This document shows positions 1-34,495 of a stretch of 34,495 nucleotides of DNA, one piece after another (the stretch's first letter is position 1; each line of letters begins with the position of its first letter). The DNA is taken from the NCBI GenBank assembly GCA_023129655.1, contig JAGMBN010000002.1, positions 1 through 34,495 on the forward strand. The letters run 5' to 3'. Under the pieces are notes generated by a model. The model saw only the letters and a program-made list of their open reading frames with translations, was not told the origin of the DNA and did no database searches. The DNA is from a bacterium (lineage in GTDB: Bacteria > JAHJDO01). The translations under genes were made by a program, and so were the position numbers.

Positions 1-23
1 TTCAGGATAGCCTTCTTAAAACA

Positions 24-560
24 TTGGATAAAATATTGAAAATATCTTTGAAGGCAGATGTTTTAATAATGTTCATAGGAGGCATAGCTGTTAGCGTGTG
101 GGGAGAACCGCGAACCACATATGATATAGATGCGGTTATAGGAATTTCCAGCTCTGAGAGCGGTAAGTTTCTTTTGGAAGCGAGTAAGCAAAACTTTACT
201 TATGACAAAAAAAATCCTGTGAAAACAATACAGAGATCAGATTTTATTACTCTTGTATCTTCGGTAAAAAACCATAAAATCTATGTAGATCTTTTTCTGG
301 CTTCGGGAGAGTATCAGAAAGAAGCTTTATCCCACAGGAAGGAGATTAAGCTCTCTGGCAGAAAAATCCCCGTTATTTCAGCAGAGGATTTAATTCTTTA
401 TAAATTATTAGCTGGACGAACTAAAGATATAGATGATATAAGAGAAATTCTTATCTCTCAAAAAGGAAAGCTGGATATGAGGTATATGAAAAAGTGGGCT
501 ATAAAGCTTGGAATAACGACTTTCTTAAATGATGAACTGGATTCGATCAATATAACATAA
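24..560 (+). CDS. Nucleotidyltransferase-fold protein (AbiEii/DUF2204-like), non-ribosomal
   Basis: 178-aa ORF. The frame stays open back to nt 3, so the true start may lie upstream of the window. It carries a GG...DxD signature (FIGGIAVSVWGEPRTTYDIDAVI) and a C-terminal ISAEDLILYKLLAGRTKDIDDI segment typical of minimal NTase / abortive-infection-type proteins. The family call is from motif memory only. Confidence 0.4.
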   Translation: MDKILKISLKADVLIMFIGGIAVSVWGEPRTTYDIDAVIGISSSESGKFLLEASKQNFTYDKKNPVKTIQRSDFITLVSSVKNHKIYVDLFLASGEYQKEALSHRKEIKLSGRKIPVISAEDLILYKLLAGRTKDIDDIREILISQKGKLDMRYMKKWAIKLGITTFLNDELDSINIT

Positions 561-580
561 TATAGAGAAGGCGTAATGTT

Positions 581-1270
581 ATGAAAAAAAGAGGTAAGAG
601 GTATCAGGCAGTTGAGAAGTTAATAGATAAAGAAAAAACGTATGATCTTTCTCAGGCAGTTGAATTACTGAAAAAGGCAGCTAACGCAAAGTTTGATGAA
701 ACGGTTAATATGGCTTTTCATCTGGGAGTAGATCCTAAAAATGCTGACCAGCAGGTAAGAGGTGTTATAAATCTGCCTCATGGAACAGGCAAGACTGTAA
801 GAATTGCGGCTTTTGTAAAGGGTGATAATGTTGATAAAGCTAAGAAAGCAGGAGCTGATTTTGTTGGGGATAAGGATCTGATGGATAAGATAAGCAAAGG
901 CTGGCTTGATTTTGATGTTGTAGTTGCAACGCCTGATATGATGAAAGAGATAAGTAAGTTAGGGAAGATACTTGGGCCGCGCGGATTAATGCCTAATCCA
1001 AAGAGTGGGACAGTTGCTTTGGATATAGCAGGAGCTGTAGCAGAGATTAAGGCAGGAAAAGTAGAGTACAGGCTGGATAAAGGAGCAAATTTGCATATAG
1101 TAGTAGGAAAGGTTTCTTTTTCCAAAGAGCAATTATCAGACAATATACTGACAGTTGCAAAGGAAATCATTCATGCAAAACCTGCGTCTTGTAAAGGGCA
1201 ATATGTAAGAAATCTTGCTGTTAGTTCCGCAATGGGACCGCCAATAAGGATGAATATAAATGTCAAATAA
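581..1270 (+). CDS. rplA: 50S ribosomal protein L1
   Basis: 229-aa ORF with L1 signatures VNMAFHLGVDPKNADQQVRG and GPRGLMPNPKSGTV; located upstream of rplJ. Confidence 0.95.
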   Translation: MKKRGKRYQAVEKLIDKEKTYDLSQAVELLKKAANAKFDETVNMAFHLGVDPKNADQQVRGVINLPHGTGKTVRIAAFVKGDNVDKAKKAGADFVGDKDLMDKISKGWLDFDVVVATPDMMKEISKLGKILGPRGLMPNPKSGTVALDIAGAVAEIKAGKVEYRLDKGANLHIVVGKVSFSKEQLSDNILTVAKEIIHAKPASCKGQYVRNLAVSSAMGPPIRMNINVK

Positions 1271-1288
1271 CAAAAGAATTAAATTCAA

Positions 1289-1321
1289 GGCACAAAGTGA
1301 CAAAGGCACATAGGCACAAAG
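1289..1321. repeat. Three GGCACA(AAG) units in the rplA-rplJ spacer
   Basis: GGCACAAAG at 1289-1297, GGCACA at 1305-1310 and GGCACAAAG at 1313-1321, read directly from the sequence. Confidence 0.5.
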
Positions 1322-1360
1322 AAAAGATAATTAAAATTTGGATTTAGAATGACCGAACGT

Positions 1361-1390
1361 CCCCCTTTGAAGGGGGATTAAGGGGGATGT
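1361..1390 (+). promoter_or_regulatory. rplJ leader hairpin with candidate anti-SD/SD alternative pairing
   Basis: CCCCCTT (1361-1367) is complementary to AAGGGGG at 1370-1376. It is equally complementary to the tandem copy AAGGGGG at 1380-1386, which is the Shine-Dalgarno (SD) element 4 nt before the rplJ ATG at 1391. Confidence 0.3.
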
Positions 1391-1948
1391 ATGAACAAAG
1401 ATGAAAAAGCTAAAAGGGTAAAGGAATTAGTCAGGCAATTTCAGAAAAGTCCTAATAATATGGTATTTACAGATTATAAAGGGTTAACAGTTAAAGAGAT
1501 ATCAGGCTTACGGGAAACATTAAATGAAAAAGGAATATTGTATAAGGTTATCAAAAACAGACTTGCATGTTTGGCATTAAAGGAGAGTGGGCTGAAAGGT
1601 TTGGATCAATTTTTTACTGGTCCTACAGCTATTGCTTTTGCGCAGAATGATCCAACTGTTCCGGCAAAAGCGCTGTCAAAATGTTCAAAAGAATATGATT
1701 GCCTTAACATTAAAGGAGGGTTTATTGATGAACTTGTTTTTTCCGCAGAACAGATTAGAGAGATTGCTTTAATTCCTTCCAGAGATCAATTGCTTATGCA
1801 GTTAATAGGACAGCTTCAAGCTCCAATAGGTAATTTTGTATATTGTATCAGATCAATATTAGCCAGGTTTGTGTATGTGATTCACGCTGTAATAGATAAT
1901 AGAACTAATTCAAAGATAGAGGAGGTTGATAATGGTAACAAAAGCTAA
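1391..1948 (+). CDS. rplJ: 50S ribosomal protein L10
   Basis: 185-aa ORF with L10-like [19 protein letters not shown]...LYKVIKNRL; lies between rplA and rplL; G-rich SD upstream. Confidence 0.9.
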
Positions 1949-2438
1949 GAAAGCAACAGAAAAATCAGTAGAGCCTAAGGATGTTAAATCATCTAAAAAG
2001 GATGATCCTAAAGTTCCTCAGGTTGAGGTGGAACAAAAGCCATCTACAAAAAAGCCGGATAAGGCTGGTATTGTAGATATGGTAAAGAATATGACGGTTC
2101 TGGAGTTATCTAATCTTGTCAAAGATTTAGAAAAGGAATTTGGCGTTACTGCTGCTCCGATTGGTATTGGAGCTGCCTCACCAGGCGCAGCGCCTGCTTC
2201 TGCTGTTTCTGAGGAAGAGAAAGAAAAAACAACGTTTACTGTCTTATTAAAGCAGTTTGGGGATAAGAAGATTCAGGTAATAAAGGAAGTAAGAGCTATT
2301 ACAGAGTTGGGACTTAAGGAAGCGAAAGACCTGGTAGAGAGTGCGCCAAAGCCTATTAAGGAAAATATTTCAAAGGAGGAAGCTGAGGAGCTTAAGAAAA
2401 AGTTAGAAGCTGTTGGTGCTGTTGTAGAATTGCAGTAA
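1932..2438 (+). CDS. rplL: 50S ribosomal protein L7/L12 with a Lys/Pro/Glu-rich N-terminal extension
   Basis: The C-terminal domain ([24 protein letters not shown]...[11 protein letters not shown]) and the dimerisation helix ([26 protein letters not shown]) are typical L12. GGAGG at 1921-1925 favours the ATG at 1932 over the track's TTG at 1926. Confidence 0.9.
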
Positions 2439-2505
2439 AGGTAGTCTTTAAAGACATAATAATTGTTGCTAAAAATAGCCTAATTTAAATAAAGGGAAAA
2501 TAAAT

Positions 2506-5500
2506 ATGTCTCAACATGTAACTAATTCTTTTGGCAGAGATGTGTACTGTCAGATATCTCCTGTTATGAATATTCCTGATTTAATGTATGTTCAAAGGAT
2601 GCCATATGCAGAATTTCTTCAGAGGGATGTGAACCCTGCGAATCGTAAAAAGCAGGGACTTCAGGCAGTATTTAATGAGTTTTTCCCGATAATAGACGAA
2701 AGGGGGAAATCCTGCCTTGAATTTTTAAGCTATAGTATTGGTGACCCTAAATACAATGTAGCTGAATGCGAGAGGTATGGAGTGACATATGCTGCTCCTC
2801 TTAAGTTGAGAATGAAACTGACTATTAATGAAGAGAATTCCAGTAAAGCTGATAGCGCAAGAGAGCAGGAGGTGTATTTACTGGACTTACCTCTTATGAC
2901 AGAGCAAGGGACGTTTGTCATCAACGGAGCAGAGAGAGTTATTGTTAGTCAGTTACATAGATCTCCAGGTCTGTATTGTCAGAAAAAGGAAGTTTCTAAT
3001 GAGAAAGAGCTTTATTCAGCACGTCTCATTCCGAATAGAGGGGTCTGGCTTGAGTTTGAATTCGATGTCAATGATGTGCTTTATGTTAGTATGGACCGTA
3101 AAAGAAAGATGCTTGCTACAGTTTTACTTAGAGCGTTTGGATATGTGACAGATGAAGAAATTATCAGACTTTTCCATAATTGCAAGAAGAAGATAATTAC
3201 AAATAAGACAGTGCCTGATAATCTTATTGATGAAATTCTGGCAGAGGACATAGTTGATGAAAATACAGGAGAAGTTCTAGCAGAGAGTAAGGAGAGAATA
3301 ACTCCTTCCATTGCTAAGAAGATATTAACATTCAAAATCAAAAGTATAAACATAATAGAAATGGCTGGCAGAGATATTTCTATTATAAATACGCTTGCAA
3401 AAGATCATAGAAAATCGAAAGAAGAAGCTTTTGTAGAAATATATAAAAGATTGCGTCCAAGTGATCATTTTACAATAGATACTGCTGAGAGTTATTTTAA
3501 CGACATTATTTATAATCCTAAAAGATACGACCTTTCACAAGTTGGAAGATATAAGCTGAATCAGAAGTTAGGTCTTAATCATTCTTTGGACAAGACGACA
3601 TTAGATAAAGAAGACATAGTAAAAACAATCAATTATTTGCTTCTGGCAAAGCACAATAAAGAAGACGAGGATGATATTGACCATCTTTGGAATAGAAGAG
3701 TCAGGACTGTAGGGGAATTATTACAGACTCAATTTAGAATAGGGCTTGCTAAGTTAGAGAGATCCGTAAGAGAGAGAATGACATTTCAAGAACCTGATAC
3801 TGTTATGCCGCATAATTTAATTAATGGACGGTTAATTTCTTCAACGGTAAATGATTTCTTTGCGCGTGGACAACTGTCGCAATTTATGGATCAAACAAAT
3901 CCGCTTTCAGAACTTACTCATAAAAGAAGACTAAGCGCATTAGGACCTGGAGGACTTACAAGAGAGAGAGCAGGGTTTGAGGTTAGAGATGTTCATCCGA
4001 CCCACTATGGACGTATTTGTCCTATAGAAACGCCAGAGGGGTCTAATATTGGGTTGATAGCTTCTCTTGCCACATATACAGGGATTAATGAATTGGGATT
4101 GTTAGAAACGCCTGCAAGAAAGGTTGCTGATGGTCGAGTGACCAATGAAGTAGTTTGGCTGTCCGCTGATATTAGCGACAAAAATGTTGTTGCTCAAGCT
4201 AATGCAAAGATTGATAAAAAAGGCTATTTTGTTGAAGATGAGGTATCAGTTAGAGTTAAAGGCGATTTTCGCAAGGTCTCTCCAAGAGATGTGAATTTCG
4301 TGGATGTCTCACCTGACCAGATAGTTAGTGTAGCTGCAGGATTGATCCCTTTTTTAGAGCATGATGACGCAAATAGAGCTCTTATGGGGTCAAATATGCA
4401 GAGGCAGGCAGTTCCTCTTTTAAAACCGGAAGCTCCTTTGATTGGTACAGGAATGGAGGATATTGTTGCCAAATGGTCTGGATCCGCTGTTGCCGCTAAG
4501 AGAGCAGGGATTGTGGAATCGGTATGTTCTGATAAAATAATTATTCGTCAGGAAGAAAACGAGGGCGATTTTGATGAATACATATTGAGGAAATTTGAAA
4601 AATCAAATCAGAATACCTGTATTAATCAGCGGCCGATTGTTAGAGAAGGAGAAAGGGTCTCTAAGCATGACATCATAGCTGAATCTTCTGCTACAGATAA
4701 TAAGGAATTAGCTTTGGGACAGAATATGCTGGTGGCATTTATGCCATGGAGAGGATATAATTTTGAAGATGCTATTGTCATTAGTGAAAAACTGGTTAGG
4801 GATGATACCTGTACCTCTGTCCATATTGAGGAATTAGAAGTAGAAGCAAGGGAAACAAAACTTGGGAAAGAAGAGGTCACTCGTGATATACCCAATGTTA
4901 GTGAAGGAGACTTGGCTAATCTGGACGAGCATGGAATTGTGCGAATTGGGACACATGTGAAACCGGGAGATGTATTAGTAGGGAAAGTGACTCCTAAGAG
5001 TGAAACAGGCCTGACATCTGAAGAAAAATTACTGATAGCAATCTTTGGCGAAAAGGCAGGTGATGTGCTTAACACATCTTTAACTGTTCCTGTTGGTGTG
5101 GAGGGAATAGTTACAGATGTTAGAATATTGTCAAGACATGATAAGGACGATATTGATGCTTTGGGGAAAAAGATTATTGAGGATATTGGGTATAAAATTG
5201 ACATGGAGATCAGAAAGACTAAGAATAATCTGATTGAGACACTTGGAAGCCTTGTTAGAGGGAAAGTAATAGCTGAGGACCTGACTAACAAGAATGGAAA
5301 AGTCTTTCTCTCTGCCAGCCAGAAAGTTAAGAAAGAAGATGTACGGAAAATACCAATTAAGTATCTGAGAAACCTTAGAGTTAAAAATATCGACATCAAT
5401 AGAAAAATTCTTGCGTTAATTGAGAGCTTTGAGGGAAAGCTAAAGTCTTTTAGTAAAGAGAGAAAATTAGAAGTAGAAAAGATCAAGAAGGGAGATGAGC

Positions 5501-8500
5501 TTTCTCCAGGTGTAATAAAACGCATAATGGTTTATATAGGCAATAAAAGAAAAATCTCAAAGGGAGATAAGGTTTCCGGCAGGCATGGAAATAAGGGTGT
5601 GATTGCAAAGATATTGCCGGAGGAGGATATGCCTTATTTATCGGATGGAACATCAGTGGAAATTGTGCTTAATCCTTTAGGCGTTCCTTCAAGAATGAAT
5701 GTGGGACAGATTTTAGAGACTCATGTTGGGTGGGCAGCTAAAGTTTTGGGTATAAAGATTGCGACTCCTGTTTTTAATGGAATTAAAGAGACAGAAATAA
5801 AACAGCTTCTTAAAAAGGCAGGACTACCTGAAGATGGTCAGGTTATTTTGTATGACGGGATGACAGGCGAACAATTTGATAACAAAGTAACTGTTGGTTA
5901 TATTTACATGATGAAATTGTCACATCTTGTGGATGATAAGATGCATGCTCGCGCAACAGGTCCATATTCATTAGTTACTCAACAGCCTTTGGGAGGAAAG
6001 GCTCAGTTTGGAGGACAGCGTTTTGGCGAAATGGAGGTATGGGCATTAGAAGCATATGGCGCTGCTCATACTTTGCAGGAATTGCTTACAGTAAAAAGTG
6101 ACGACGTTGTTGGCAGAATGCAGATATATGAAAGTGTTGTAAAGGGAGAAAATACAGTTCAATCCGGCATACCAGAGTCTTTCAATGTTTTATTAAAGGA
6201 ATTGCAAGGCTTAGGATTTGGGGTTAAACTTATAATGGGCAAAAGACCTCGTATATTTCCCAATCTTGATTTTCAAAAATGGCAGCCTAACAATTCAGAG
6301 GGATTTCAAAGCAGAACTGGTGCGATTGAAGCTATATCTATTAGTTTGGTTTCCTCTGGGGAGATCAAGCTATGGTCTAAAGGAGAAGTTAAAAAGCCGG
6401 AAACTATAAATTATAGAACGTTCAGACCGGAAAAAGACGGGCTTTTTTGCGAAAGAATCTTTGGGCCAACAAGGGATTGGGAGTGTTATTGTGGTAAATA
6501 TAAGAGAATCAGACATAAAGGAATAATTTGCGACAGATGTGGTGTGGAAGTCACGCAATCTAAAGTAAGGCGTCAACGTATGGGGCATATAAGTCTTGCT
6601 TCACCAGCAGCTCATGTTTGGCTTTTTAAGGTTGTTCCAAGTTATATGAGTACATTACTTGATTTGAGTTTGAAGAATATAGAAAAGATTCTCTATTATG
6701 AGAGTTATATAGTGCTGGATCCTGAAAAGACCTCTTTGGAAAAGTATCAGCTTTTAAGCGATGAGGAATATGAAAAATACAGAGAAGAATTCGGAGATGG
6801 ATTTGGTGCGGAGATGGGGGCTTCAGCTATTAAAAAAATGCTGCAGGAGATTGATTTAGATAAACTTGCGGAAAGTTTGAGGGCAAAAGAGAAGAAAACA
6901 GTATTTAAACAGGCAAAGAAAAAGATTAATAAGAGATTGAGGGTTGTTGAAGCCTTTCGCGCTTCTGGTAGTAGGCCTGAATGGATGATTATGGATGTTG
7001 TTCCTGTTATCCCTCCAGACTTAAGACCTTTAGTTCCTTTGGATGGAGGGCGCTTTGCAACCTCGGATCTGAATGACTTATATCGAAGAGTTATTAATCG
7101 AAATAACAGGCTAAAGAGGCTTCTGGAACTAGGCGCGCCCAGTATAATTATTAGAAATGAAAAAAGGATGTTACAGGAAGCAGTTGATGCTTTATTTGAC
7201 AATGGCAGACATGGCAGGACAGTAGTTGGACATGGTAATCGCCCCCTTAAGTCTCTTAGTGACATGTTGGGTGGGAAACAGGGTAGATTTAGACAGAATC
7301 TTTTGGGAAAACGCGTTGATTATTCAGGAAGATCAGTTATTGTTGTGGAGCCAAAATTGAAGCTGCATCAATGCGGTTTGCCTAAGCGCATGGCATTAGA
7401 ACTGTTTGAACCGTTTGTGATCAGAAAATTAAGAGCGAAGGGAATAATAAATACTATAAAGAATGCGAAGAAGATGCTGGAAAAAGCAGAAGCAGAAATA
7501 TGGGATATTCTTGATGAGGTAATAAAGGATCGTTTCGTTTTACTTAACAGGGCTCCGACACTACATAGACTGGGTATACAGGCATTTCAACCTGTTCTTA
7601 TTGAAGGAAAAGCAATAGGAGTCCATCCATTGGTCTGCGCTGCGTTTAATGCAGATTTTGATGGAGATACAATGTCAGTACATGTGGCTCTTACACCAGA
7701 AGCAGAGTTAGAAGCAGAGTTTTTAATGTTATCAAGTAAAAACATTTTCTCTCCTGCCAACGGAGAAGCAATAGTAGTGCCAAGACAGGAGATCGTATTA
7801 GGATGCTATTACTTAACAAAAGAAAAGCATAGCAATAAGAGGGAAGAAAAAATATTTTCATCGTTTAACGAAGCAATTGCTGCATATGATTCTAAAAAAG
7901 TGGAATTGCATTCCATGGTAAAGATAAGGATAAATGGCGAACCAATAGAGACAACTGTAGGGAGAATTCTGTTTAATGAAATTTTGCCTTTCTCGTTACA
8001 GTTTGTAAATAGGGTGCTTGATAAAGACAAACTGAGTGACTTAATCGAAGAGTGTTTCAAAAAGGAAGGGTATCATCAGACAGTTATAATGCTGGACAGG
8101 ATTAAAACATTAGGATTTGAGATGGCTACCAGAGGAGGCATTTCCATTAGTATTGATAATCTGGTTATTCCTCCAATAAAGAATAAGTTGTTAGAACAAG
8201 GGAAACGAGAGGCCGGCATTATTGAGGAGCAGTATAGGAAGGGTGTTATTACCGACAGAGAAAGATATAATAAGGTGATTGACGTATGGACGCATATTAC
8301 GGATAAGGTCTCAGATGCCATGTTTAAAGAGATGGAAAAGGATCCTTTTAATCCTGTTTTAATGATGCTGCTTTCAGGCGCAAGAGGTAGCAGCCAGCAG
8401 ATAAGGCAATTGGCGGGCATGCGTGGGCTGATGGCTAGACCTAAGAAGAATATTACAGGAGAGATAGGAGAGATCATAGAAACTCCTATAATGACAAATT

Positions 8501-10365: not shown

Positions 10366-10379
10366 GAAAGGAAATAGAT

Positions 10380-10751: not shown

Positions 10752-10763
10752 AGGAGATATGTA

Positions 10764-11231: not shown

Positions 11232-11246
11232 TGATAGAAAAAGCAC

Positions 11247-11274: not shown

Positions 11275-11308
11275 CCGTGAACTTATTTAAAAGAAGGAGG
11301 GATAGGAA

Positions 11309-12528: not shown

Positions 12529-12549
12529 GCTGAATTTAAGGATAGCAAA

Positions 12550-12858: not shown

Positions 12859-12864
12859 GAAATT

Positions 12865-13500: not shown

Positions 13501-13505
13501 TTATT

Positions 13506-24054: not shown

Positions 24055-24527
24055 AAGAGTATAGATACTCAACTATAGAAAAAGTAAAACTTGTAATAAT
24101 GGACATAGTGGTTCAAATAATAGTTGGTGCTTTTTGTCTCCTTCTTAGCCAAATTTATCTTCTTAAATATATTATATGGATACCTTTTGCATGGCTAGCC
24201 TATCATTCATTTAGGTTAACTAGTATTACATTTACGATTATCTTTAAGACAGATGATGTTGGATTAACACTAATGCGTAATAAAGACAAGATGAAAATTG
24301 CTTGGGAAGAGATTGAAAAGATTAATATAACCAGACGAAGAGGAGAGATAGTAAGGCTTGATATTTTTCATAGAATTTTGAAAAAACGGGTGCTTATAGA
24401 CGATGGTTTTAAAAACTATAAAGAGTTGTTTGAGACCATATTGATCAATGTGAAAAAAAAGAACAATAAGGTTGTTATTGTTGAAAAAACAGAAGACCTT
24501 TTTCATAAGGGAAAAAATAAATGCTAG
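24051..24527 (+). CDS. Putative cognate immunity protein (two transmembrane helices plus a small soluble domain)
   Basis: 158-aa ORF. Its start overlaps the RHS stop (ATGA). Hydrophobic stretches are LVIMDIVVQIIVGAFCLLLSQIYLL and IIWIPFAWLAYHSF. The position immediately 3' of an RHS toxin tip is the classical immunity location. No recognisable family. Confidence 0.55.
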   Translation: MKEYRYSTIEKVKLVIMDIVVQIIVGAFCLLLSQIYLLKYIIWIPFAWLAYHSFRLTSITFTIIFKTDDVGLTLMRNKDKMKIAWEEIEKINITRRRGEIVRLDIFHRILKKRVLIDDGFKNYKELFETILINVKKKNNKVVIVEKTEDLFHKGKNKC

Positions 24528-24576
24528 AAAGTAGCTTAGCATTAAAACTTGAAGATTTTGAAGAAAGAATAATGGA

Positions 24577-27000: not shown

Positions 27001-27002
27001 GG

Positions 27003-27024
27003 AATGAAGGTTAGTAAGTTTAGA
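27003..27024 (+). repeat. Right copy of the perfect 22-bp direct repeat (the authentic rpmC start)
   Basis: Identical to 18891-18912. Confidence 0.9.
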
Positions 27025-27231
27025 GATATGACGAATACAGAATTGGATCAAGAACTTGTTAATTTAAAACAGGAAATATTTAATTTGAATGTTCGTTCAG
27101 CTACAGGGCAATTGGAGGATCCAAAAAGGATTGGACGATTAAGAAAGGATATAGCAAGAATTAATACTGTCCTGCGAGAGAGACAGATAGAGGAAGAGAA
27201 AAGTGAAAAGGGTTCAAAAAGTGAAGATTAA
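27004..27231 (+). CDS. rpmC: 50S ribosomal protein L29
   Basis: 75-aa ORF with [47 protein letters not shown]. Confidence 0.95.
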
Positions 27232-27463
27232 AGTAGGTGTTGTTGTTAGTGATAAGATGGATAAGACAGTTGTTGCTTTAGTGGAAAGGCTGGTTTTACA
27301 TTCGGTTTATAAACGAAGAGTGAAGAAATTCAGCAGGTTTAAAGCGCACGATAAGGACAACTCTGCGCATACAGGCGATAGAGTGGAAATTAAGGAAACC
27401 AGACCCTTAAGCAAAGATAAAAGATGGTATATTTCAAAGATTATAGAAAGGTCTAAGAGCTAA
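27203..27463 (+). CDS. rpsQ: 30S ribosomal protein S17
   Basis: 86-aa ORF with a GTG start (alternative GTG at 27221); [19 protein letters not shown]...[18 protein letters not shown]. Confidence 0.93.
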
Positions 27464-27465
27464 AT

Positions 27466-27834
27466 ATGATACAAGCGCAAACGATTCTCAATGTAGCTGA
27501 TAATTCAGGAGCAAAGAGGTTAATGTGCTTTAAGGTATTAGGAGGCACACGCAGAAGATATGCCAGCATAGGCGATATTGTAGTAGCGTCTGTAAAAGAG
27601 TCAACACCTGATGGCGCTGTTAAAAAAGGAGAGGTAGTAAAAGTTGTTATTGTGCGGACAAGAAAAGAGATCAGAAGAGAAGATGGTTCATATATAAAGT
27701 TTGACAAAAATGCAGGTGTTATAATTGACGCGCAAAAGAATCCGGTTGGAACAAGGATTTTCGGGCCAGTTGCCAGAGAATTGCGAGATAAAGGTTTTTC
27801 TAAAATTATCTCATTAGCTCCGGAGGTTATTTGA
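27466..27834 (+). CDS. rplN: 50S ribosomal protein L14
   Basis: 122-aa ORF with [27 protein letters not shown]. Confidence 0.97.
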
Positions 27835-27837
27835 AAA

Positions 27838-28170
27838 ATGGCTAAAGAACATAATTATATTAAAAAAGGCGATCAGGTTGTTGTTATAGCAGGGAAGGAC
27901 AGTGGAAAGACAGGTCGCGTATTGCGTGTGTTTCCGAAAAAGCTGAAAGCTATTGTGGAGAGAGTGAATTTTGTTAAGAAACATACAAAGCCTTCACAAC
28001 AGAATCAAAAAGGCGGAATAATAGAAAAAGAGGCGCCTTTGCATGTGTCCAATTTGTTGTTATACTGCGCGCGATGTGAAAAAGGGGCTAGGATCGGATT
28101 TAAAATATTGGAAAATAAAACTAAAGTGAGATATTGCAAACGCTGCAATGAATTAATGGATAAAAGTTAA
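27838..28170 (+). CDS. rplX: 50S ribosomal protein L24 (Cys4 form)
   Basis: 110-aa ORF with KKGDQVVVIAGKDSGKTGRVLRVFPK, plus CARC...CKRC. Confidence 0.95.
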   Translation: MAKEHNYIKKGDQVVVIAGKDSGKTGRVLRVFPKKLKAIVERVNFVKKHTKPSQQNQKGGIIEKEAPLHVSNLLLYCARCEKGARIGFKILENKTKVRYCKRCNELMDKS

Positions 28171-28173
28171 AAG

Positions 28174-28719
28174 ATGACACGATTAGAGAAGAAATATAAA
28201 GAAGACGTAATATCCCAAATGATGAAGAAGTTTGGGTATAAAAATAAACTGCAGGTCCCGAAATTGGAAAAGATTGTGCTTAATACATGTCTGAAAGAGG
28301 CTATAGAGAATAAGAAGGTTTTGGATGTTGCCTGTTTAGAACTTGGAGCAATAACAGGACAAAAACCGATTATTACAAAGGCAAAGAAGTCTGTAGCAGG
28401 ATTTAAACTCAGGACCGAAATGCCAATAGGCGCTAAGGTAACTCTACGGCGAGATAAAATGCATGAGTTTCTTGATCGCTTGTTAAATATAACTCTGCCG
28501 CGTATAAGGGATTTTAGGGGAGTTTCTCCGAAATCTTTTGATGTTAGCGGAAACTATACATTGGGCATTAAGGAACAAATTATATTCCCGGAGATAGATG
28601 TTGATAAAACAGAGAAAGTACATGGTTTAGATATTACAATTGTAACCAGCGCAAAAACTCCTGACGAAGGAAGAGAGTTGTTAGGATTATTGGGTATGCC
28701 TTTTACTAGAAATGTTTAG
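28174..28719 (+). CDS. rplE: 50S ribosomal protein L5
   Basis: 181-aa ORF with [21 protein letters not shown] and [16 protein letters not shown]. Confidence 0.96.
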
Positions 28720-28780
28720 AATTTTGAGAATTGAGATTTTAGATTTGTTTAGGATTTAGATATTAGAATTTAGGATTTGG
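28716..28780. repeat. AT-rich microrepeat tract, about six TAG(R)AT(T)T units, in the rplE-rpsZ spacer
   Basis: tagaattt, tagatttg, taggattt, tagatatt, tagaattt and taggattt read between 28717 and 28778. It shares the 9-mer GGATTTAGA with the rplJ leader (1340-1348). Confidence 0.55.
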
Positions 28781-28789
28781 GAGAAATGT

Positions 28790-28975
28790 ATGGCGAGAAA
28801 AGCGCTTATAGCAAAAGCTAAAAGAGAGCCGAAATATAAAGTGCGAAGGTACAATAGGTGCAGTTTGTGCGGAAGACCGCGGGGATATATAAGAAAATTC
28901 GGATTGTGTAGAATATGCTTTAGAAAATTAGCTCTAAGCGGAAAACTGCCCGGAGTTATAAAAGCCAGTTGGTAA
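28790..28975 (+). CDS. rpsZ: 30S ribosomal protein S14 type Z (zinc-binding)
   Basis: 61-aa ORF with [22 protein letters not shown] (CxxC...CxxC). Confidence 0.96.
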
Positions 28976-28990
28976 TTTGGGAGGATAAAA

Positions 28991-29386
28991 ATGCCTGTAA
29001 CAGATCCAATATCAGATATGCTTACATCCATTAGAAATGCTTATATGGTTCATAAAGGTTGTTTATCTGTATCTGCTTCTACATTGAAGGTGGATATAGT
29101 AGGTATCCTAAAAAAAGAAGGGTTCATTCAGGATTATAAAGTTGAGGCCAATAATAGCCATAAAATTATAGAAATAGATCTGCGCTATTATAAAAAAGAA
29201 CCTATGGTAAGAGGTTTGGAAAGAGTAAGCAAACCAGGTCTGCGTATATATGTACCTGCTTCTAAAATCCCCAGAGTAAAGAGAGGCTCAGGAATAGCTA
29301 TCCTATCTACTTCAGAAGGCATAATGACTGATAAGGAATGTCGGGTAAAGAAAATCGGAGGCGAGGTTATTTGTTATGCATGGTAA
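28991..29386 (+). CDS. rpsH: 30S ribosomal protein S8
   Basis: 131-aa ORF with DPISDMLTSIRNA and GIAILSTSEGIMTDKE. Confidence 0.96.
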   Translation: MPVTDPISDMLTSIRNAYMVHKGCLSVSASTLKVDIVGILKKEGFIQDYKVEANNSHKIIEIDLRYYKKEPMVRGLERVSKPGLRIYVPASKIPRVKRGSGIAILSTSEGIMTDKECRVKKIGGEVICYAW

Positions 29387-31616
29387 CTGCTTGACTAAAA
29401 TAGAAAAAGCCTCAGGGAAAAATTTGTGGTATGAGACAAAATTGAGAAGGATGATGACTGGCTGGAGTTTTCCAGACAGAGATCAACTAAAAAACTATAA
29501 TATGTCATTAGAAGGGTACGAAAAATTAGAAAAAATAATAAATAATAATCTTGATGCGAAAAAGATGGTAAGTAAATTAAAGGAAATTGATGCTGAAGTA
29601 TTTTATTTTCATGCTAAATCACATAGTGGAAATGCCTGGTATAACACGAGGATTGGACATAAACATTCAGCATTGAGAGGAAGAGATTTTGTAGCCGAAT
29701 TAGTCAGAGAATGCAGGAAGAATGACATCTCTCCTGTCTGTATGCTTCAGGTAACAACTGATGTGAGAGTATATGATGAGCATTCTAAGTATAGAAAAGT
29801 GAGTAATAAAGGGATCTCTTTTAGACCATATGTATGCATAAACAATCCTTCATGGAGAAAAAAAGTTTTATCACAGATAGAAGAGATAGTTGCTAATTAC
29901 GATATTGATGGGATCTTGTTGGATGAGTTTGATTTTTCCCATTTCAACGTAAAAGATATTATGTGTTATTGTCTACATTGCCAAAAGATGTTTAGAGCGA
30001 AGTATGGTAGCGATATTCCCAAAGAACCAGCATGGGATAGTTCCCTATGGAAGCATTTTGTCTTATGGAGATATGAAGTAGTTGCAGATTTTCTTAGAGA
30101 GGTAAGAAAGCTTATTAAAAAAATAAAACCTAAAGTTTCACTTAGCCTGATATCTTACGCACACAGTTGGACTAACTGGAGCTTAGGACAGGCTACCGAA
30201 CTTTGCGCGCAGCATCTTGACTATCTTTGCGTGGATACTCATGGATGTTTAAATCTTAGCCAAACAGCTCGGTTCTTTCGTGCATTTAGCAAAGGGAAAC
30301 CAGAGCTTATAATATGGGGTACCTCCAATTTTGGTGGTGTGCGAGATAGAATGCTAATAAAGCCATATCCTGAATATATGACCGAAGCGATGACCATTAT
30401 TGCAAATGGTTTATCTTTAGGGATAGATATATGTTATCAGCCTATTCATGAGAAAGGCATTTGGGACTCCAATATAATGAAGATGAGTAGTAACATAATG
30501 AAAGAGATAGGAAAAAGAGAGAAATACCTAAGCAATGATATGATTCCCCTGTCCGATACAGCTTTATACTATTCAGAGAACTCAAGAGATTTTTACGCTA
30601 AGGATACGCCACAAAAATATTTTAATTCGTACATGGGGACATATAAAGCATTGTTAGAAAAACAGGTGCTTTTTGATATTATTGGCGATAGACACCTAAA
30701 TCAGAAGACGCTGAAGAAATATAAGGCGATAATTTTACCATCCGCAGTTTGTTTATCCAATACTCAGATAGAAAACATAACTACATATGTAGAAAACGGT
30801 GGTGGGTTAGTAGCCACCTATAAAACATCCCTATGCAATGAAATGGGAAATAAGCAGGGTAATTTTGGTTTATCTAAATTATTTGGAGTTGATTATAAAT
30901 CAGAAGGCTCCAGAGGCGATTATAAACTTTTTGGAAAGGATAATACTTCTGAGCACTGGTATTTAAAGATGGAATCCAACTGTCATATAAGTAAGTATTT
31001 GGAGCAGATCTGTGTTTTACGGACTCCAACGACTATAGTCAAAGCACTTGATGGCACTAAAGTTATGGGCGAGTTTTGTCAGGGGAAAGCTGTAGACATC
31101 TGTGGAGGGATGATGATTTCCCCATTTATAGGAAACGTTACAATACACCCTGCAGTCGTGGCTAATAAGGTTGGTAAAGGAAGAGTAGTATATATAGCAG
31201 CAAAATTAGGGAGTCTTTATGGAACAACTGGGCATCCATATGCGCAAGCACTTTTAGTTAATGCACTTAACTGGGCTACTAAAGGAGTAAAAGAAGTAAA
31301 AGTTAATGCGCCAAGGGGTATAGAGGTCACAGCATTTAAACAAATGAATGGCAAGAAAATAATTGTTCATTTAGTAAATCTTCAGTCTGTTCCTTTACGA
31401 GTTACCAACTATAGAGATAACAGTTCAGTCCAGGATATTTTACCTATACACAGTATTGAGATGAAAATTCAGATAGAAAAATGTAGAAGAGTAAAAAGTG
31501 TCTATCTTGTCCCAGGAAAAACAAAAATAGATTATAAATTTTGCAACAAAAATACCATTGAGTTGATAGTTCCGGAGGTAAAAATTCATATAATGGTAAT
31601 AATAGAATTAATTTAG
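29376..31616 (+). CDS. Putative glycoside-hydrolase-like TIM-barrel protein (GHL6-like) with a GH42-type trimerisation/GATase-like domain
   Basis: 746-aa ORF. Its start overlaps the last 11 nt of rpsH. FYFHAKSHSGNAWYNTRIGHKH...RDFVAELVRECRKNDI...VCINNPSWRKKVLSQIEEIVANYDIDGILLDEF and CYCLHCQKMF fit my recollection of GHL6. KKYKAIILPSAVCLSNTQIENITTYVENGGGLVATY fits a beta-galactosidase trimerisation-like domain. No signal peptide. Confidence 0.45.
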   Translation: MHGNCLTKIEKASGKNLWYETKLRRMMTGWSFPDRDQLKNYNMSLEGYEKLEKIINNNLDAKKMVSKLKEIDAEVFYFHAKSHSGNAWYNTRIGHKHSALRGRDFVAELVRECRKNDISPVCMLQVTTDVRVYDEHSKYRKVSNKGISFRPYVCINNPSWRKKVLSQIEEIVANYDIDGILLDEFDFSHFNVKDIMCYCLHCQKMFRAKYGSDIPKEPAWDSSLWKHFVLWRYEVVADFLREVRKLIKKIKPKVSLSLISYAHSWTNWSLGQATELCAQHLDYLCVDTHGCLNLSQTARFFRAFSKGKPELIIWGTSNFGGVRDRMLIKPYPEYMTEAMTIIANGLSLGIDICYQPIHEKGIWDSNIMKMSSNIMKEIGKREKYLSNDMIPLSDTALYYSENSRDFYAKDTPQKYFNSYMGTYKALLEKQVLFDIIGDRHLNQKTLKKYKAIILPSAVCLSNTQIENITTYVENGGGLVATYKTSLCNEMGNKQGNFGLSKLFGVDYKSEGSRGDYKLFGKDNTSEHWYLKMESNCHISKYLEQICVLRTPTTIVKALDGTKVMGEFCQGKAVDICGGMMISPFIGNVTIHPAVVANKVGKGRVVYIAAKLGSLYGTTGHPYAQALLVNALNWATKGVKEVKVNAPRGIEVTAFKQMNGKKIIVHLVNLQSVPLRVTNYRDNSSVQDILPIHSIEMKIQIEKCRRVKSVYLVPGKTKIDYKFCNKNTIELIVPEVKIHIMVIIELI

Positions 31617-32376
31617 CTGTGGAGGACACTATAATACTTTTCTCGGGAGAATGAATAAAATGCTAAAAACCATTACAAAGCCAGAACAAAAAGCATTAAG
31701 AGAATTCAAGAGGCTTTTAGGGGAATCTTTGCCTGAAGAGATAGTGCTAATGAAGCTTTTTGGTTCTAAGGCGCGCGGGGATGCGCGAAAGGATTCTGAT
31801 ATTGACGTGTTGGTTGTGACCAAAAGCGATGATTGGCGTATGTGCGATGTGGCTTGTGGTATAGCTACTGATATACTTCTTGAAAATGATATTCTAATTT
31901 CTCCAAAAGTAATAGGAAAAAGTCATTATGACTATATTAACAATTTACAAACACCGTTTATCAAAAACGTCAATAGGGAAGGTATTGCTTTATGAATGAG
32001 AAACTGCGGCAACTTATAGATGGAGAAATGACTAGAGCTGATAGTGCGCTTGTGGCTTCGAAAGTGCTTTTTGAGAAAGAATTACTTGAAGATGCTGTTT
32101 CAAGAGCGTATTATGCGTCGCTTCATGTAGCTAAAGCAGCTTTGTTGTCAAAAGGAATAGAGACATCAAGTCATAGAGGCGTGCTTTCTATGTTTGGCTT
32201 GCATCTTGTTAAGTCAGGCGATATTGAAATAGAATACGCTAAAATGTTAGCCGTTGAGAAAGAAGACAGAGAGATAGGTGATTATGATATTACGGTAGAA
32301 ATAAGTGAGGAAAGAGCCGAAGAAAGAGTAGAAGAAGCTGAAAAATTTGTTGAAAGGATAAAGAGGTTTCTAAAGC
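29387..32376 (+). other. Accessory island C inserted between rpsH and rplF (GHL6-like gene plus MNT-HEPN pair)
   Basis: rpsH and rplF are normally adjacent. Here 3.0 kb of non-ribosomal sequence separates them. Confidence 0.75.
31651..31995 (+). CDS. Minimal nucleotidyltransferase (MNT) antitoxin
   Basis: 114-aa ORF with the G-S...D-x-D motif (LFGSKARGDARKDSDIDVLVV). Its stop overlaps the HEPN start (ATGA). An alternative start is the ATG at 31660. Confidence 0.8.
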   Translation: MNKMLKTITKPEQKALREFKRLLGESLPEEIVLMKLFGSKARGDARKDSDIDVLVVTKSDDWRMCDVACGIATDILLENDILISPKVIGKSHYDYINNLQTPFIKNVNREGIAL

Positions 32377-32384
32377 ATGTCTAG
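31992..32384 (+). CDS. HEPN-domain protein (toxin partner of MNT)
   Basis: 130-aa helical ORF with RAYYASLHVAKAALLSKGIETSSHRGVLSMF and EDREIGDYD, typical of PF05168-type HEPN proteins. It overlaps the rplF start by 8 nt. Confidence 0.75.
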   Translation: MNEKLRQLIDGEMTRADSALVASKVLFEKELLEDAVSRAYYASLHVAKAALLSKGIETSSHRGVLSMFGLHLVKSGDIEIEYAKMLAVEKEDREIGDYDITVEISEERAEERVEEAEKFVERIKRFLKHV

Positions 32385-32925
32385 AATAGGAAAAATGCCG
32401 ATAGATATCCCAGAAGGGGTTAGAGTAGATATAAATGGGAAACTGGTCAAGATTAATGGACATAAAGGCGCTCTTGAACATAAGTTAGATGCAGATGTGT
32501 CTGCAGTTGTAGAGGATAATAAGATTATTGTAAAGAGGGGCTCAGATAGCAAATCAGCAAGGGCAAAACATGGATTAAATAGAGCTTTAATTGCCAATAT
32601 GGTGACAGGAGTAACTACAGGATTTGAAAAAATTCTGGAGATCAAAGGGGTGGGATATAGAGCTCAAGTACAGGGGCAAAAGTTGCAGTTGCAATTGGGA
32701 TTTTCGCATCCTGTAATGTATGAGATTCCATCAAATATAGAAATTGAAGTAAGAAAAAATAATCAGATTGTGGTGAAAGGAATTGATAAACAGTTGGTAG
32801 GCGAGGTGGCTGTTGCAATTAGAAATATGAAAAAGCCTGAGCCATATAAAGGAAAGGGGATCCGCTACTTAGGCGAATATGTTAAGCATAAGGTTGGTAA
32901 GACAGCTGCAACCACTGGAGCGTAG
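32377..32925 (+). CDS. rplF: 50S ribosomal protein L6
   Basis: 182-aa ORF with MSRIGKMPIDIPEGV and KGVGYRAQVQGQKLQLQLGFSHPV. Confidence 0.96.
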   Translation: MSRIGKMPIDIPEGVRVDINGKLVKINGHKGALEHKLDADVSAVVEDNKIIVKRGSDSKSARAKHGLNRALIANMVTGVTTGFEKILEIKGVGYRAQVQGQKLQLQLGFSHPVMYEIPSNIEIEVRKNNQIVVKGIDKQLVGEVAVAIRNMKKPEPYKGKGIRYLGEYVKHKVGKTAATTGA

Positions 32926-32943
32926 GCATAAAGGATACTGCTG

Positions 32944-33297
32944 ATGAAATTAGAGGGTAGAGCTAAAAGACATAGAAGAGTAAGAAAAAAAGTTGCCGGT
33001 ACATTTCAAAGACCAAGATTGAGTGTGTTTAGAAGTTTAAAACACATATATGTTCAATTAGTTGATGATGAGAATGCGAAGACGCTGCTTTCAGTATCAA
33101 CTCGTTCAAAAGACTGTATGGGAAAAATAAAGTATGGAGGAAACATAGCGGCAGCAAAAGTTGTAGGAAAGATGCTTGGAGAGATTGCATTGAATAATAA
33201 GATTATAAATGTTGTATTTGATAAGGGCGGATATTTATATCATGGCCGCATAAAGGCTTTAGCGGACGCGGCAAGAGGAGCCGGGCTCAAGTTTTAG
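32944..33297 (+). CDS. rplR: 50S ribosomal protein L18
   Basis: 117-aa ORF with RHRRVRKKVAGT..RPRLSVFRSLKHIYVQLVDD and FDKGGYLYHGRIKALADAAR. Confidence 0.96.
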   Translation: MKLEGRAKRHRRVRKKVAGTFQRPRLSVFRSLKHIYVQLVDDENAKTLLSVSTRSKDCMGKIKYGGNIAAAKVVGKMLGEIALNNKIINVVFDKGGYLYHGRIKALADAARGAGLKF

Positions 33298-33315
33298 CGT
33301 GAGGAGGGAACAAGT

Positions 33316-33807
33316 TTGGTAGAAAGTAGAATAAAAAAAGATGTGGACGCTCAGGAACTAGTAGAGCGGGTTGTGAATGTAAATAGAGTTGGTAAGGTTG
33401 TAAAGGGCGGAAGAAAGTTTGGTTTTAGCAGTCTGGCTGTAGTAGGGGACGGAAATGGAAAAGTAGGATATGGCATAGGTAAAGCAAACGCAGTACCTGA
33501 GTCAATAAAAAAGGCTGTCCAATCAGCAAAGAGGAATATGATAGATGTTTTAATTATAGATACAACGATCCCGTTTGAAATAGTAGGCCATTATGATGCA
33601 GCAAGAATTATGTTAAAACCTGCTTCAAAGGGAACTGGTGTAATTGCAGGAAGTGCGGTTAGGGCTGTATTGGAAGCGGTTGGTATTCAAAATGCTTTGA
33701 CAAAATGTTTGGGATCCAATAACTCGATAAATGTTGTTAGAGCAACAATAGAAGGTTTGAAAAATATATCAGAGATTTATGAGTTATCAAAGAAAAGGCA
33801 TAGATAA
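33316..33807 (+). CDS. rpsE: 30S ribosomal protein S5 (TTG start)
   Basis: 163-aa ORF with VNRVGKVVKGGRKFGFSSLAVVGDGNGKVGYGIGKA. GAGGAGGG SD at 33301-33308. Confidence 0.95.
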   Translation: MVESRIKKDVDAQELVERVVNVNRVGKVVKGGRKFGFSSLAVVGDGNGKVGYGIGKANAVPESIKKAVQSAKRNMIDVLIIDTTIPFEIVGHYDAARIMLKPASKGTGVIAGSAVRAVLEAVGIQNALTKCLGSNNSINVVRATIEGLKNISEIYELSKKRHR

Positions 33808-34248
33808 ATGATATTAGGCAATTTGAAAGTTCCTAAGGGCGCTAAGAAGAGGAAGAAAATAGTTGGACGCGGTAATGGTTCAGGTCATGGGAAAACTGCC
33901 TGCAGGGGGAGCAAGGGACAGAGATCAAGATCCGGCGGTGGGGTTCGACGTGGTTTTGAAGGCGGTCAAATGCCTCTCTATCGCAGAGTACCAAAAAGGG
34001 GATTTACTAACCGCTCAAGAGAAAAAATAGTAATTATAAATATAGAGAGATTGAATTGTTTTAAGGATGGTTCGGTTGTGAATCTTGGGAGTCTTACAGA
34101 AAAAGAGCTGTTAAAGTCTCAGGATGCTTTAGTCAAAATTTTAGGTATTGGAGAGTTAAAGAAAAAGTTAAATGTAAAAGCGCATAGCTTTAGTAAGAGC
34201 GCTATTAAGAAGATTATTGATGCCGGAGGAACTGCAGAGGTTATATAA
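33808..34248 (+). CDS. rplO: 50S ribosomal protein L15
   Basis: 146-aa ORF with GRGNGSGHGKTACRGSKGQRSRSGGGVRRGFEGGQMPLYRRVPKRGF. It starts immediately after rpsE, so there is no rpmD. Confidence 0.95.
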   Translation: MILGNLKVPKGAKKRKKIVGRGNGSGHGKTACRGSKGQRSRSGGGVRRGFEGGQMPLYRRVPKRGFTNRSREKIVIINIERLNCFKDGSVVNLGSLTEKELLKSQDALVKILGIGELKKKLNVKAHSFSKSAIKKIIDAGGTAEVI

Positions 34249-34495
34249 TGCTGTCGGGATTTCGAGATATATTTAGAATACCGGAATTAAAAAAGCGAGT
34301 TTTGTTTACTTTGTCTATTATAGCTGTTTTTAGAATAGGCGCTTTTGTCCCAACGCCAGGTATAGATACCAGCGCATTAGTTGAATATTTTGCTAGAATG
34401 CAGGGCACTCTCTTTGGAATGGCAGATATGTTTTCAGGTGGCGCTTTGCGGAAACTGTCTATATTCGCCCTGGGCATAATGCCGTATATCAGCGC
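34248..34495 (+). CDS. secY: Preprotein translocase SecY, 5' partial (runs off the window)
   Basis: Not in the ORF track because no stop is reached. The ATG at 34248 overlaps the rplO stop (TAATG). My own translation (MLSGFRDIFRIPELKKRVLFTLSIIAVFRIGAFVPTPGID...LSIFALGIMPYIS) matches the SecY N-terminus. Confidence 0.9.
   Translation, partial: MLSGFRDIFRIPELKKRVLFTLSIIAVFRIGAFVPTPGIDTSALVEYFARMQGTLFGMADMFSGGALRKLSIFALGIMPYIS

Follow-up and report, generated by a model that had tools for sequence, protein, structure and literature searches.

Toxin–antitoxin-like, Rhs and secreted-protein islands between adjacent ribosomal protein genes in a genus-level bacterial clade

Introduction

The S10, spc and L11 arrays of ribosomal protein genes are a classic example of a gene order that selection has kept fixed. 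Here we describe a bacterial contig of 34,495 nt (JAGMBN010000002.1, assembly GCA_023129655.1, analyzed over its whole length and hereafter called the window) in which these arrays are interrupted, between adjacent ribosomal protein genes, by islands of toxin–antitoxin (TA)-like modules, Rhs modules and genes for secreted or surface proteins.

Among the closest described arrangements are chromosomal integration hotspots, at which the same pair of core genes flanks varying accessory content, individual sites may be empty, and many sites hold no recombinase. Such hotspots normally lie in intergenic regions between transcription units or beside tRNA genes. The present locus is similar in that the same flanking genes enclose different content or none, and exchange by homologous recombination in these flanks is plausible. 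It differs in that the flanks belong to an essential operon that is highly expressed and whose genes are translationally coupled. In Mycobacterium tuberculosis, non-ribosomal genes on the kilobase scale are found between the S10 and spc operons and before secY, at operon boundaries and conserved across the genus. The inserts described here, in contrast, are located within operons, vary at the species level and include TA and Rhs modules.

Insertions into the ribosomal cluster itself have been documented as well. As far as the accessible text of two reports goes (PMC8046335; 2019, PMC6735719), they resemble the present case in bringing a few kilobases of foreign genes into a conserved cluster and in recurring in particular clades, and the mechanisms discussed are duplication, transposon-assisted recombination and horizontal gene transfer. 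The accessible part of the former places these insertions between operons (tusDCB, bfd-bfr, ilv-leu) or after rplL, with housekeeping or metabolic cargo, and describes insertion between operons of the cluster followed by their separation in Gammaproteobacteria and Bacilli (PMC8046335). Compared with what is given there, the islands described here lie between adjacent ribosomal protein genes within the S10, spc and L11 units, number five in one genome, and carry TA, Rhs and secreted-protein cargo. We found no description of TA or Rhs islands inside the S10 or spc operons in full-text searches of a limited library with poor coverage of subscription journals. The components are of known kinds, namely core-gene-flanked hotspots, Rhs orphan arrays and TA modules on islands; what is unusual is the site between translationally coupled ribosomal genes, the presence of five islands per genome, and the TA-marked recurrence across a clade.

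Islands in the ribosomal super-operon

All genes judged to be real lie on the + strand of the window, and the identity of every backbone gene was confirmed by Pfam. The order runs rplA, rplJ, rplL, fused rpoBC, rpsL, rpsG, tuf, rpsJ, rplC and rplD, followed by rplW-rplB-rpsS-rplV-rpsC-rplP / rpmC-rpsQ-rplN-rplX-rplE-rpsN-rpsH / rplF-rplR-rpsE-rplO and the 5' part of secY, where the slashes mark island sites. A preliminary description of the window had proposed a ribosomal super-operon with co-oriented foreign genes before rplA (here island E, at rplK/rplA) and at rplD/rplW, rplP/rpmC and rpsH/rplF (islands A, B and C). Pfam searches and the geometry of the genes bore this out, each island holds the domains that had been guessed for it, and a fifth island (D, secY/adk) lies just beyond the window (Table 1).

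The five islands of this one genome carry 14 genes, all co-oriented with the operon: three two-gene TA-like modules, one predicted Rhs toxin with its putative immunity gene, a degenerate second Rhs module, and five genes of secreted, membrane or hydrolase type. Across the eight islands of the window genome and its relatives, every called cargo gene is on the operon strand. The cargo had been characterized as mostly of the toxin/antidote kind. It is rich in such modules, but 5 of the 14 genes here (orf371, the GHL6-type gene and the three secY/adk genes) and most genes of the sister islands are secreted, surface or hydrolase-type.

For a metagenomic sequence, an assembly chimera joining unrelated contigs inside the operon has to be considered, particularly as the duplicated tuf gene breaks or misjoins assemblies in this clade (contigs ending in tuf; a contig, L246, reading rpsG-tuf-secE). 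Exact-protein look-ups recovered the same locus in two further assemblies (ENA ERZ23498859 and GCA_030629405.1, 99.9–100% identical to the window), both of which break at tuf. The junctions are identical in all three assemblies, which differ elsewhere by small strain-level patches of single-nucleotide differences in rpsC, rpoBC and rpsG, with 0 differences in the islands or at the junctions. Furthermore, the window contains no N, the open reading frames (ORFs) are in frame and co-oriented at all ten edges, islands occupy the same junctions in genomes that were sampled and assembled independently (L242-L244 come from NCBI, ENA and Logan), and a flanking repeat of 21 nt falls short of final k-mers such as 141 and could not bridge them. 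A chimera is thus extremely improbable, and the observation is real and not an artefact.

To place the islands in the history of the clade, we compared the junctions in close relatives, comprising L003 (GTDB representative JBDRTG01) and seven metagenome contigs (L083-L089) with 82–92% ribosomal protein identity to the window; the next relatives drop to at most 65%, as does the best L5 match outside the clade. All five junctions are empty and compact in congeners (Table 1), which indicates that the islands are recent insertions and not clade-wide members of the operon. The preliminary description had allowed that sister genomes might carry these genes as ordinary conserved operon members with non-toxin functions, and the comparison came out opposite. 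The ancestral ribosomal cluster was compact and uninterrupted.

Kilobase-scale interruption of S10/spc is also rare elsewhere. Across about 120 other loci, 5 of 2,013 adjacent-gene junctions have gaps exceeding 1 kb, and one of these is L003. Other gaps of this size in the background set occur at rpsS/rplV in two Polyangiaceae metagenome-assembled genomes (4–5 kb; L007 1842-7301 and L031 3061-7293) and at rpsE/rplO in two sphingomonads (1.6–3 kb; L045 3111-6137 and L072 12932-14585).

Recurrence across the clade

One element that links the islands of different genomes is the MNT-HEPN module of island C, a putative TA pair. It resembles the type VII TA system MntA/HepT, in which the toxicity of HEPN is neutralized through AMPylation by the NTase, in consisting of a nucleotidyltransferase (NTase) with a GSx10DxD motif, a 4-nt gene overlap, and a HEPN protein with an Rx6H motif, and both proteins match the PADLOC candidate defence families PDC-M05A/B. 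Unlike MntA/HepT, it has a HEPN protein for which no DUF86 (HepT) match was reported and an NTase that scores below the family cutoff (NCBIfam MntA NF047752, 32 bits against 60). The HEPN protein has no NCBIfam match, its only Pfam match being PF05168, and no close relatives of it were found among IMG/VR viral contigs.

Remnants of this pair were identified at other junctions. Small ORFs adjoining rplA in the relatives L242, L245 and L246-L249 are remnants of a window-type MNT-HEPN pair, with 88–96% nucleotide identity (L242 8951-8997 against window 32079-32125, 96%, E=1e-18; L246 against window 32076-32161, 88% over 86 nt). The deletion joint is identical in L242, L245 and L246/L247 and connects the MNT 5' end to approximately codon 28 of HEPN at a GAATT microhomology. 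The module is intact before rplF in the window. Only scars of it are left before rplA in three lineages and, in the sister genome L003, before rplF. Its place is the downstream end of an island, right against the start codon of the ribosomal gene that follows, and in two separate contexts the HEPN frame relies on the target gene for its stop.

The content of these two junctions varies widely. At rpsH/rplF we find the GHL6-type gene with MNT-HEPN (window), a 6.2-kb surface-protein island (L003) or nothing (7 contigs), and at rplK/rplA orf69 with an NTase (window genome), 6.1 kb (L242), 5.7 kb (L245), only a scar (L246-L249) or a clean site (four lineages). Cargo proteins are homologous across the junctions: HEAT699 of L003 is 74.6% identical to L245_646 and 72.6% to L242_793, and orf684 of L003 is 50–55% identical to L245_832 and L242_855. 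Related surface-protein islands of about 6 kb therefore occupy rplK/rplA and rpsH/rplF, even within one genome (L003 and L245 are contigs of the same assembly). The junctions behave as recurrent insertion sites in a genus-level clade and are integration hotspots in the sense given above. A single ancestral rpsH/rplF insertion common to the window and L003 was considered and rejected, as L003 is closest to L085 (94%), whose site is empty; recombination or independent events are needed instead.

This recurrence bears on the idea that constraint is relaxed throughout the genome, for example by a small population or a host-associated lifestyle, so that insertions occur everywhere and the ribosomal cluster has merely been sampled. 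Such a state would suit the presence of five islands in one genome when most congeners have none, the confinement of repetitive extragenic palindrome (REP)-like repeats to the islands of this genome (136 loci scanned plus seven more), and the native composition of the cargo, which shows no deviation (island GC 0.36–0.39, backbone 0.39). Three different genomes, however, carry islands or scars with shared TA remnants at the same two junctions, which points to recurrence specific to the site or the module. We regard genome-wide relaxation as a doubtful, if possible, explanation.

Two further observations concern the relatives. The rplK/rplA island of L242 contains an overlapping pair of genes (L242 5349-5749), one HicB-like (71 aa) and the other HicA-like (62 aa). 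The pair falls just short of the Pfam cutoffs (25.6 bits for the HicA-like protein, where 27 is required); the source gene calls include the HicB-like ORF and omit the HicA-like one. At rpsH/rplF, TTGACTAAAA directly follows the rpsH stop in both island C and the L003 island (L003 6985-6994). The left ends of these two islands match at 12 of 14 positions (p about 0.01), the sole notable pair, and L003 may retain a short remnant of the GHL6 5' end. A common left-end motif was dropped, since islands C and D, alike by eye, gave p=0.23 in a shuffle test. The closest homologue of the GHL6-type protein (46% identical) is encoded in a non-ribosomal neighbourhood, and a 32%-identical one carries the label Omnitrophota, which does not place the lineage. 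The homologue alignment starts at residue 11, which makes TTG at 29391, 4 nt after the rpsH stop, an alternative start for this gene.

Content of the other islands

The NTase gene of island E begins 4 nt before the start of the window. Its partner, the 69-aa orf69, overlaps the end of rplK upstream of the window (contigs L125/L126) and has no significant match in Pfam, NCBIfam or PADLOC. Identity with the type IV TA system AbiE (AbiEi/AbiEii) was rejected: the AbiEii score of 19.4 bits stays under the Pfam cutoff (22.5), DUF6036 scores best among the families (31 bits), and orf69 matches no family significantly. As judged from these searches, the pair is only AbiE-like. A DUF6036 NTase that is 25% identical to that of the window was also found at L129 405-845, about 9 kb upstream of a clean rplK/rplA site and outside the ribosomal cluster, so such modules exist outside the cluster too.

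In island A, the TA-like pair is formed by orf80 and the DUF2283 gene, and 90 non-coding nucleotides precede orf371. The pair was compared with DUF4258-type toxin / DUF2283 antitoxin pairs, in which the partner of DUF2283 is a DUF4258 protein or has the structure of a RelE/BECR-fold nuclease. The family of orf80 comprises 808 representatives. Its predicted model (AF2, pLDDT 95.7) gives HigB2, the CdiA C-terminal toxin domain and BrnT as top fold matches, all of them weak (E=0.02–0.5, TM 0.49–0.58), and of 38 family members one matches DUF4258 (2e-5) and one matches PBECR2.

Island B holds the Rhs genes and orf158. It resembles known Rhs toxin-immunity loci in having a full-length Rhs protein, a PxxxxDPxGL core (PINNIDPHGL at aa 1551-1560 of RHS1) followed by a variable C-terminal domain, here of 160 aa, an overlapping small downstream gene, and a truncated paralogue with a common 3' tail. 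It differs in showing no type VI secretion system (T6SS), PAAR or VgrG context, in its location inside the S10 operon, and in that neither the C-terminal domain nor the putative immunity gene has detectable homologues. Namely, the C-terminal domain has 0 homologues among 5.8 billion proteins and no match in Pfam, NCBIfam or PADLOC, and its predicted toxicity is therefore based on its position. The orf158 product, likewise without a match in these three databases, is predicted to be membrane-located and is the putative immunity protein. Of the toxin and immunity pair proposed for this junction, the RHS shell, plug and core motif are thus confirmed, and the immunity role is putative (gene overlap, hydrophobic half, no family). 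The true start of RHS1 is probably M16 at 18937, a codon with AGGTGA upstream of it and a signal-peptide-like segment after it.

RHS2 is 76% identical to RHS1 at the protein level. It is an internally deleted, truncated paralogue fused to a 3' remnant of the immunity gene and a tail of about 70 nt common to the first module, and we regard the second module as degenerate. In contrast to Rhs orphan modules, it is an N-terminal shell fragment and not a C-terminal orphan. An integron-cassette reading of the repeated tail was rejected, with no attC-like inverted repeat and no intI present. RHS1 also contains, in frame, two 29-nt palindromic arms that are 97% complementary (21666-21694 and 22927-22955), the first of which RHS2 lacks. 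The 1.2-kb segment between the arms has no Pfam match, is very rich in K, R and W, shows a sharp change in GC skew, and has the appearance of material inserted into the Rhs shell.

Junction geometry and expression signals

The stop/start geometry reported for the island edges proved correct to the base in all six listed distances and overlaps. The rplP stop and the RHS1 ATG have one base in common (TAATG), the orf371 stop overlaps the rplW GTG (GTGA), the longest GHL6 ORF takes in the last 11 nt of rpsH, the HEPN ORF reaches 8 nt into rplF, the NTase gene ends 20 nt short of rplA, and RHS2 passes through the immunity-gene remnant and the shared tail to a stop 3 nt before rpmC. The accompanying claim that every edge is welded to its neighbour did not hold, as 239 non-coding nucleotides with three hairpins follow rplD.

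Several of the welds are footprints of insertion and not design. The ATG of RHS1 at rplP is a copy of the rpmC start codon: the first 21 nt of rpmC are perfectly duplicated there, which recreates the ancestral rplP/rpmC overlap and thereby the TAATG weld. Other ORFs without a stop of their own run into the neighbouring gene. The last approximately 20 codons of orf371 run through a REP-like repeat to the TGA in the rplW GTGA, the same TGA that formerly ended rplD, and the HEPN frame ends on a TAG in rplF codons 2-3. The flanking genes have changed as well. The start codon of rplW is GTG here and ATG in relatives, that of rplF is ATG here and GTG at empty sites, the last codons of rplK have been replaced to give a new C-terminus at island E, and the right end of the island supplies a new Shine-Dalgarno sequence for rplF. 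Besides the repeat of island B, only island A is flanked by one, the 5-nt TGAAA at both edges; islands C, D and E have none.

The preliminary description had seen no terminators or convincing promoters at the island exits. This stands insofar as none were above chance in our scans, though these are insensitive; counts of intrinsic terminators and promoters equal those of shuffled sequence, which makes the scans uninformative either way. The exits are tight: the closest is an overlap of 8 nt and the widest a gap of 20 nt. Co-orientation, tight exits and the lack of terminator signal above background would be compatible with read-through transcription in which translation is coupled or reinitiated. 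The same features would also fit selection against polarity.

Alternatively, the islands could have split the operon functionally, bringing or evolving promoters and terminators such that the downstream genes are separate units and no read-through occurs. There is precedent for invasion and separation in Gammaproteobacteria and Bacilli, in the accessible part of the source (PMC8046335). The hairpins after rplD, weak promoter-like matches 47–142 nt upstream of rplW, rpmC and rplF, and the new Shine-Dalgarno sequence that the island right end gives rplF would all suit such a split. The extreme tightness of the exits and the absence of an intrinsic-terminator signal over shuffled background do not, and strict co-orientation is predicted by read-through and not required for independent units. 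We therefore consider operon splitting possible, yet probably not the explanation.

A model for island formation

The reading that we favour, and that is probably correct in outline, is that small TA modules breach a junction, after which cargo accretes and turns over, with expression by read-through. A small, co-oriented, terminator-free TA module would be the type of insert that an essential operon tolerates, and could thus breach a junction first, with post-segregational killing helping it to persist. The breach would create dispensable DNA in which secreted and surface proteins, a hydrolase, Rhs modules and REP-like repeats might then accumulate and turn over. Addition could occur by illegitimate recombination, and gain, loss and exchange by homologous recombination through the highly conserved flanking ribosomal genes, and the TA module would then decay. 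Cargo would be co-transcribed by read-through from the operon promoters. For the downstream ribosomal genes, translation would begin at Shine-Dalgarno sites that belong to the gene or come from the island, or would follow termination-reinitiation. The welds would be partly footprints and partly survivorship, in that only inserts keeping the mRNA continuously translated and terminator-free survive. The scar-only sites and the TA-only rplK/rplA site of the window genome are consistent with TA modules as pioneers.

Several points weigh against this proposal. Island D, like the Rhs island, has no classical TA module, and in island A the TA-like pair sits at the entry and not the exit. Scar-only sites of the L246 type could have lost cargo instead of never having carried any, which weakens the TA-first order, and scar states do not agree with a neighbour-joining tree of rplA-rplL, so that recombination or repeated events are needed. 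No recombinase, integrase or transposase domain was found in any cargo gene. The promoter consensus used in the insensitive scans may not be that of the host, and the three hairpins after rplD and the promoter-like matches described above sit uneasily with simple read-through. Finally, insertions may be just as frequent in other parts of the genome as in the ribosomal cluster.

A more adaptive interpretation, suggested in the preliminary description, is that toxin modules target the ribosomal operon as an undeletable, constitutively expressed harbour, or that the host couples toxin dosage to ribosome synthesis. TA-type modules do recur at ribosomal junctions in several lineages across the clade, the target gene supplies the HEPN stop in two contexts, and the 21-nt duplication around the Rhs island is reminiscent of an attachment site. 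The modules are deletable, however: MNT-HEPN has been reduced to scars in at least 4 places, in four independent scar states, and many relatives are clean. Much of the cargo is not toxin-like, and we found no recombinase and no common target motif (left ends were compared, with only the pair of C and L003 notable). The recurrence thus stands and undeletability does not, and we judge a harbour or dosage coupling to be unlikely. A still less likely variant is a mobile unit tailed by MNT-HEPN that targets the 5' boundaries of ribosomal genes, borrows their start and stop signals (as the HEPN frame without its own stop and the duplicated rpmC start would suggest) and drags variable cargo between junctions, tying toxin expression to ribosome synthesis. 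If true, the ribosomal super-operon would in this clade serve selfish toxin modules as a dedicated landing site.

Whichever reading applies, the clade provides a natural series at the same boundaries within one genus-level group: clean, TA-only, TA with cargo, and cargo with TA scars. This makes it possible to test how an essential, translationally coupled operon is breached, whether addiction modules act as island pioneers, and how much foreign, even toxic, coding DNA the operon tolerates in its read-through path before polarity affects 11 ribosomal genes and secY. It is also a warning for metagenomic binning and marker-gene pipelines that assume contiguous ribosomal blocks, inside which Rhs islands of 8 kb can hide.

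Table 1. Features of the window, of the adjoining island D and of the corresponding junctions in relatives (window coordinates unless another contig is named)
Feature	Position or contigs	Strand	Basis or content
Island E (rplK/rplA), downstream part: DUF6036 / AbiEii-like NTase, 187 aa	1..560 (ORF 24-560 in Pfam list)	+	Pfam DUF6036 E=5.9e-7
Backbone rplA, rplJ, rplL, rpoBC, rpsL, rpsG, tuf, rpsJ, rplC, rplD	581..14138	+	Pfam; same order in relatives
Island A (rplD/rplW): 239-nt non-coding stretch with three hairpins, orf80, DUF2283, orf371	14139..16037	+	Pfam
REP-like short palindromic repeat GTCATTGCGAGGAG-hairpin-GGCAATCT, left copy	14180..14226	+	in non-coding part of island A
orf80	14378-14620	+	no Pfam match of its own
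DUF2283 gene	14623-14835	+	PF10049, 56.2 bits (cutoff 23)
orf371: signal peptide and Secretin_N	14926-16041	+	Pfam
Inverted partner of REP-like element	15991..16020	-	within orf371 3' end
Backbone rplW, rplB, rpsS, rplV, rpsC, rplP	16038..18892	+	Pfam; junction alignment
Perfect 21-nt direct repeat ATGAAGGTTAGTAAGTTTAGA, left copy	18892..18912	+	identical to first 7 codons of rpmC
RHS1: signal peptide, Laminin_G_3, DUF6531, 17 RHS-repeat stretches	18892-24054 (longest ORF)	+	Pfam RHS_repeat E=5e-96, DUF6531 E=2e-18
Island B (rplP/rpmC), 8,091 nt: RHS1, orf158, RHS2	18913..27003	+	Pfam, motif
orf158, overlaps RHS1 stop by 4 nt	24051-24527	+	hydrophobic N-terminal half
RHS2: DUF6531 and 21 RHS-repeat stretches	24577-27000	+	Pfam
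21-nt direct repeat, right copy; real rpmC start	27004..27024	+	junction alignment
Backbone rpmC, rpsQ, rplN, rplX, rplE, rpsN, rpsH	27004..29386	+	Pfam
GHL6 / GHL10 / Glyco_hydro_42M glycoside-hydrolase-like gene	29376-31616 (longest ORF)	+	Pfam
Island C (rpsH/rplF), 2,990 nt: GHL6-type gene, MNT, HEPN	29387..32376	+	Pfam
MNT, motif GSKARGDARKDSDID (GSx10DxD)	31651-31995	+	Pfam NTP_transf_2 E=4.5e-9
HEPN, motif RAYYASLH (Rx6H)	31992-32384	+	Pfam HEPN PF05168 E=4e-16
Backbone rplF, rplR, rpsE, rplO, secY 5' part	32377..34495	+	Pfam
Island D (secY/adk): pseudopilin-like LamG protein, 218-aa ORF, 86-aa ORF	after secY on longer ENA scaffold, beyond window	operon strand	three genes before adk
REP-like element, further copies	L002 16622-16697
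rplD/rplW, empty state	L003, L087 (2/2)		ATGA overlap
rplP/rpmC, empty state	L003, L085, L086, L087 (4/4)		TAATG overlap
rpsH/rplF, empty state	7/7 contigs		9-nt spacer GAGGAAATG and GTG start
secY/adk, empty state	3/3		18-nt spacer
rplK/rplA, clean state	four further lineages (L129-L136, L250-L251)		13-14-nt spacer
rplK/rplA, island	L242-L244 (GCA_030611945.1 plus ENA and Logan assemblies)		6.1 kb, co-oriented
rplK/rplA, island	L245 (second contig of L003 genome, GCA_043824255.1)		5.7 kb
rplK/rplA, insert only	L246-L249 (four contigs)		131 nt, encodes 42 aa
rpsH/rplF, island	L003		6.2 kb, surface proteins; last ~40 nt derive from the MNT start and adjoin rplF

Additional features of the locus

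The REP-like element has the form GTCATTGCGAGGAG-(GC hairpin)-ACGTGGCAATCT. An inverted pair of it brackets island A, and an adjacent inverted pair opens the secY/adk island. A search with the pattern gave 105 matching IMG/VR contigs with a clear 33-nt consensus, GTCATTGCGAGGAGCGAAGCGACGTGGCAATCT. A scan of the window at Rfam gathering thresholds gave 0 matches.

In the backbone, rpoB and rpoC form one ORF (2506-10365; 2,619 aa in the window and 2,619–2,623 aa across the window and its relatives). The fusion is present in every relative with a complete gene (L129, L130, L242, L245 and L250) and is thus clade-wide. There is no fusA between rpsG and tuf, and no rpmD between rpsE and rplO.

The patches that differ between the three assemblies of the locus are located at 17880-18192, 10017-10032 and 11075-11114, and in the rpsC patch the differences fall mostly at multiples of 3 nt. 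This patchiness suggests co-existing strains or short recombination tracts.

The tuf gene is present in two copies, one after rpsG and the other before rpmG-secE (L126 1-143, L001 1-143, L246 2898-4558), and assemblies break there. In contig L246, rpsG-tuf is joined straight to secE-nusG, which is probably a repeat-induced misjoin. Directly 3' of the tuf stop lies a hairpin, GTCGGATATATCCGAC (12504-12526), which is kept in the relative L087 (3539-3554). An inverted 23-nt copy of this hairpin, including the tuf stop-codon context, is found at 14285-14307 in the non-coding part of island A.

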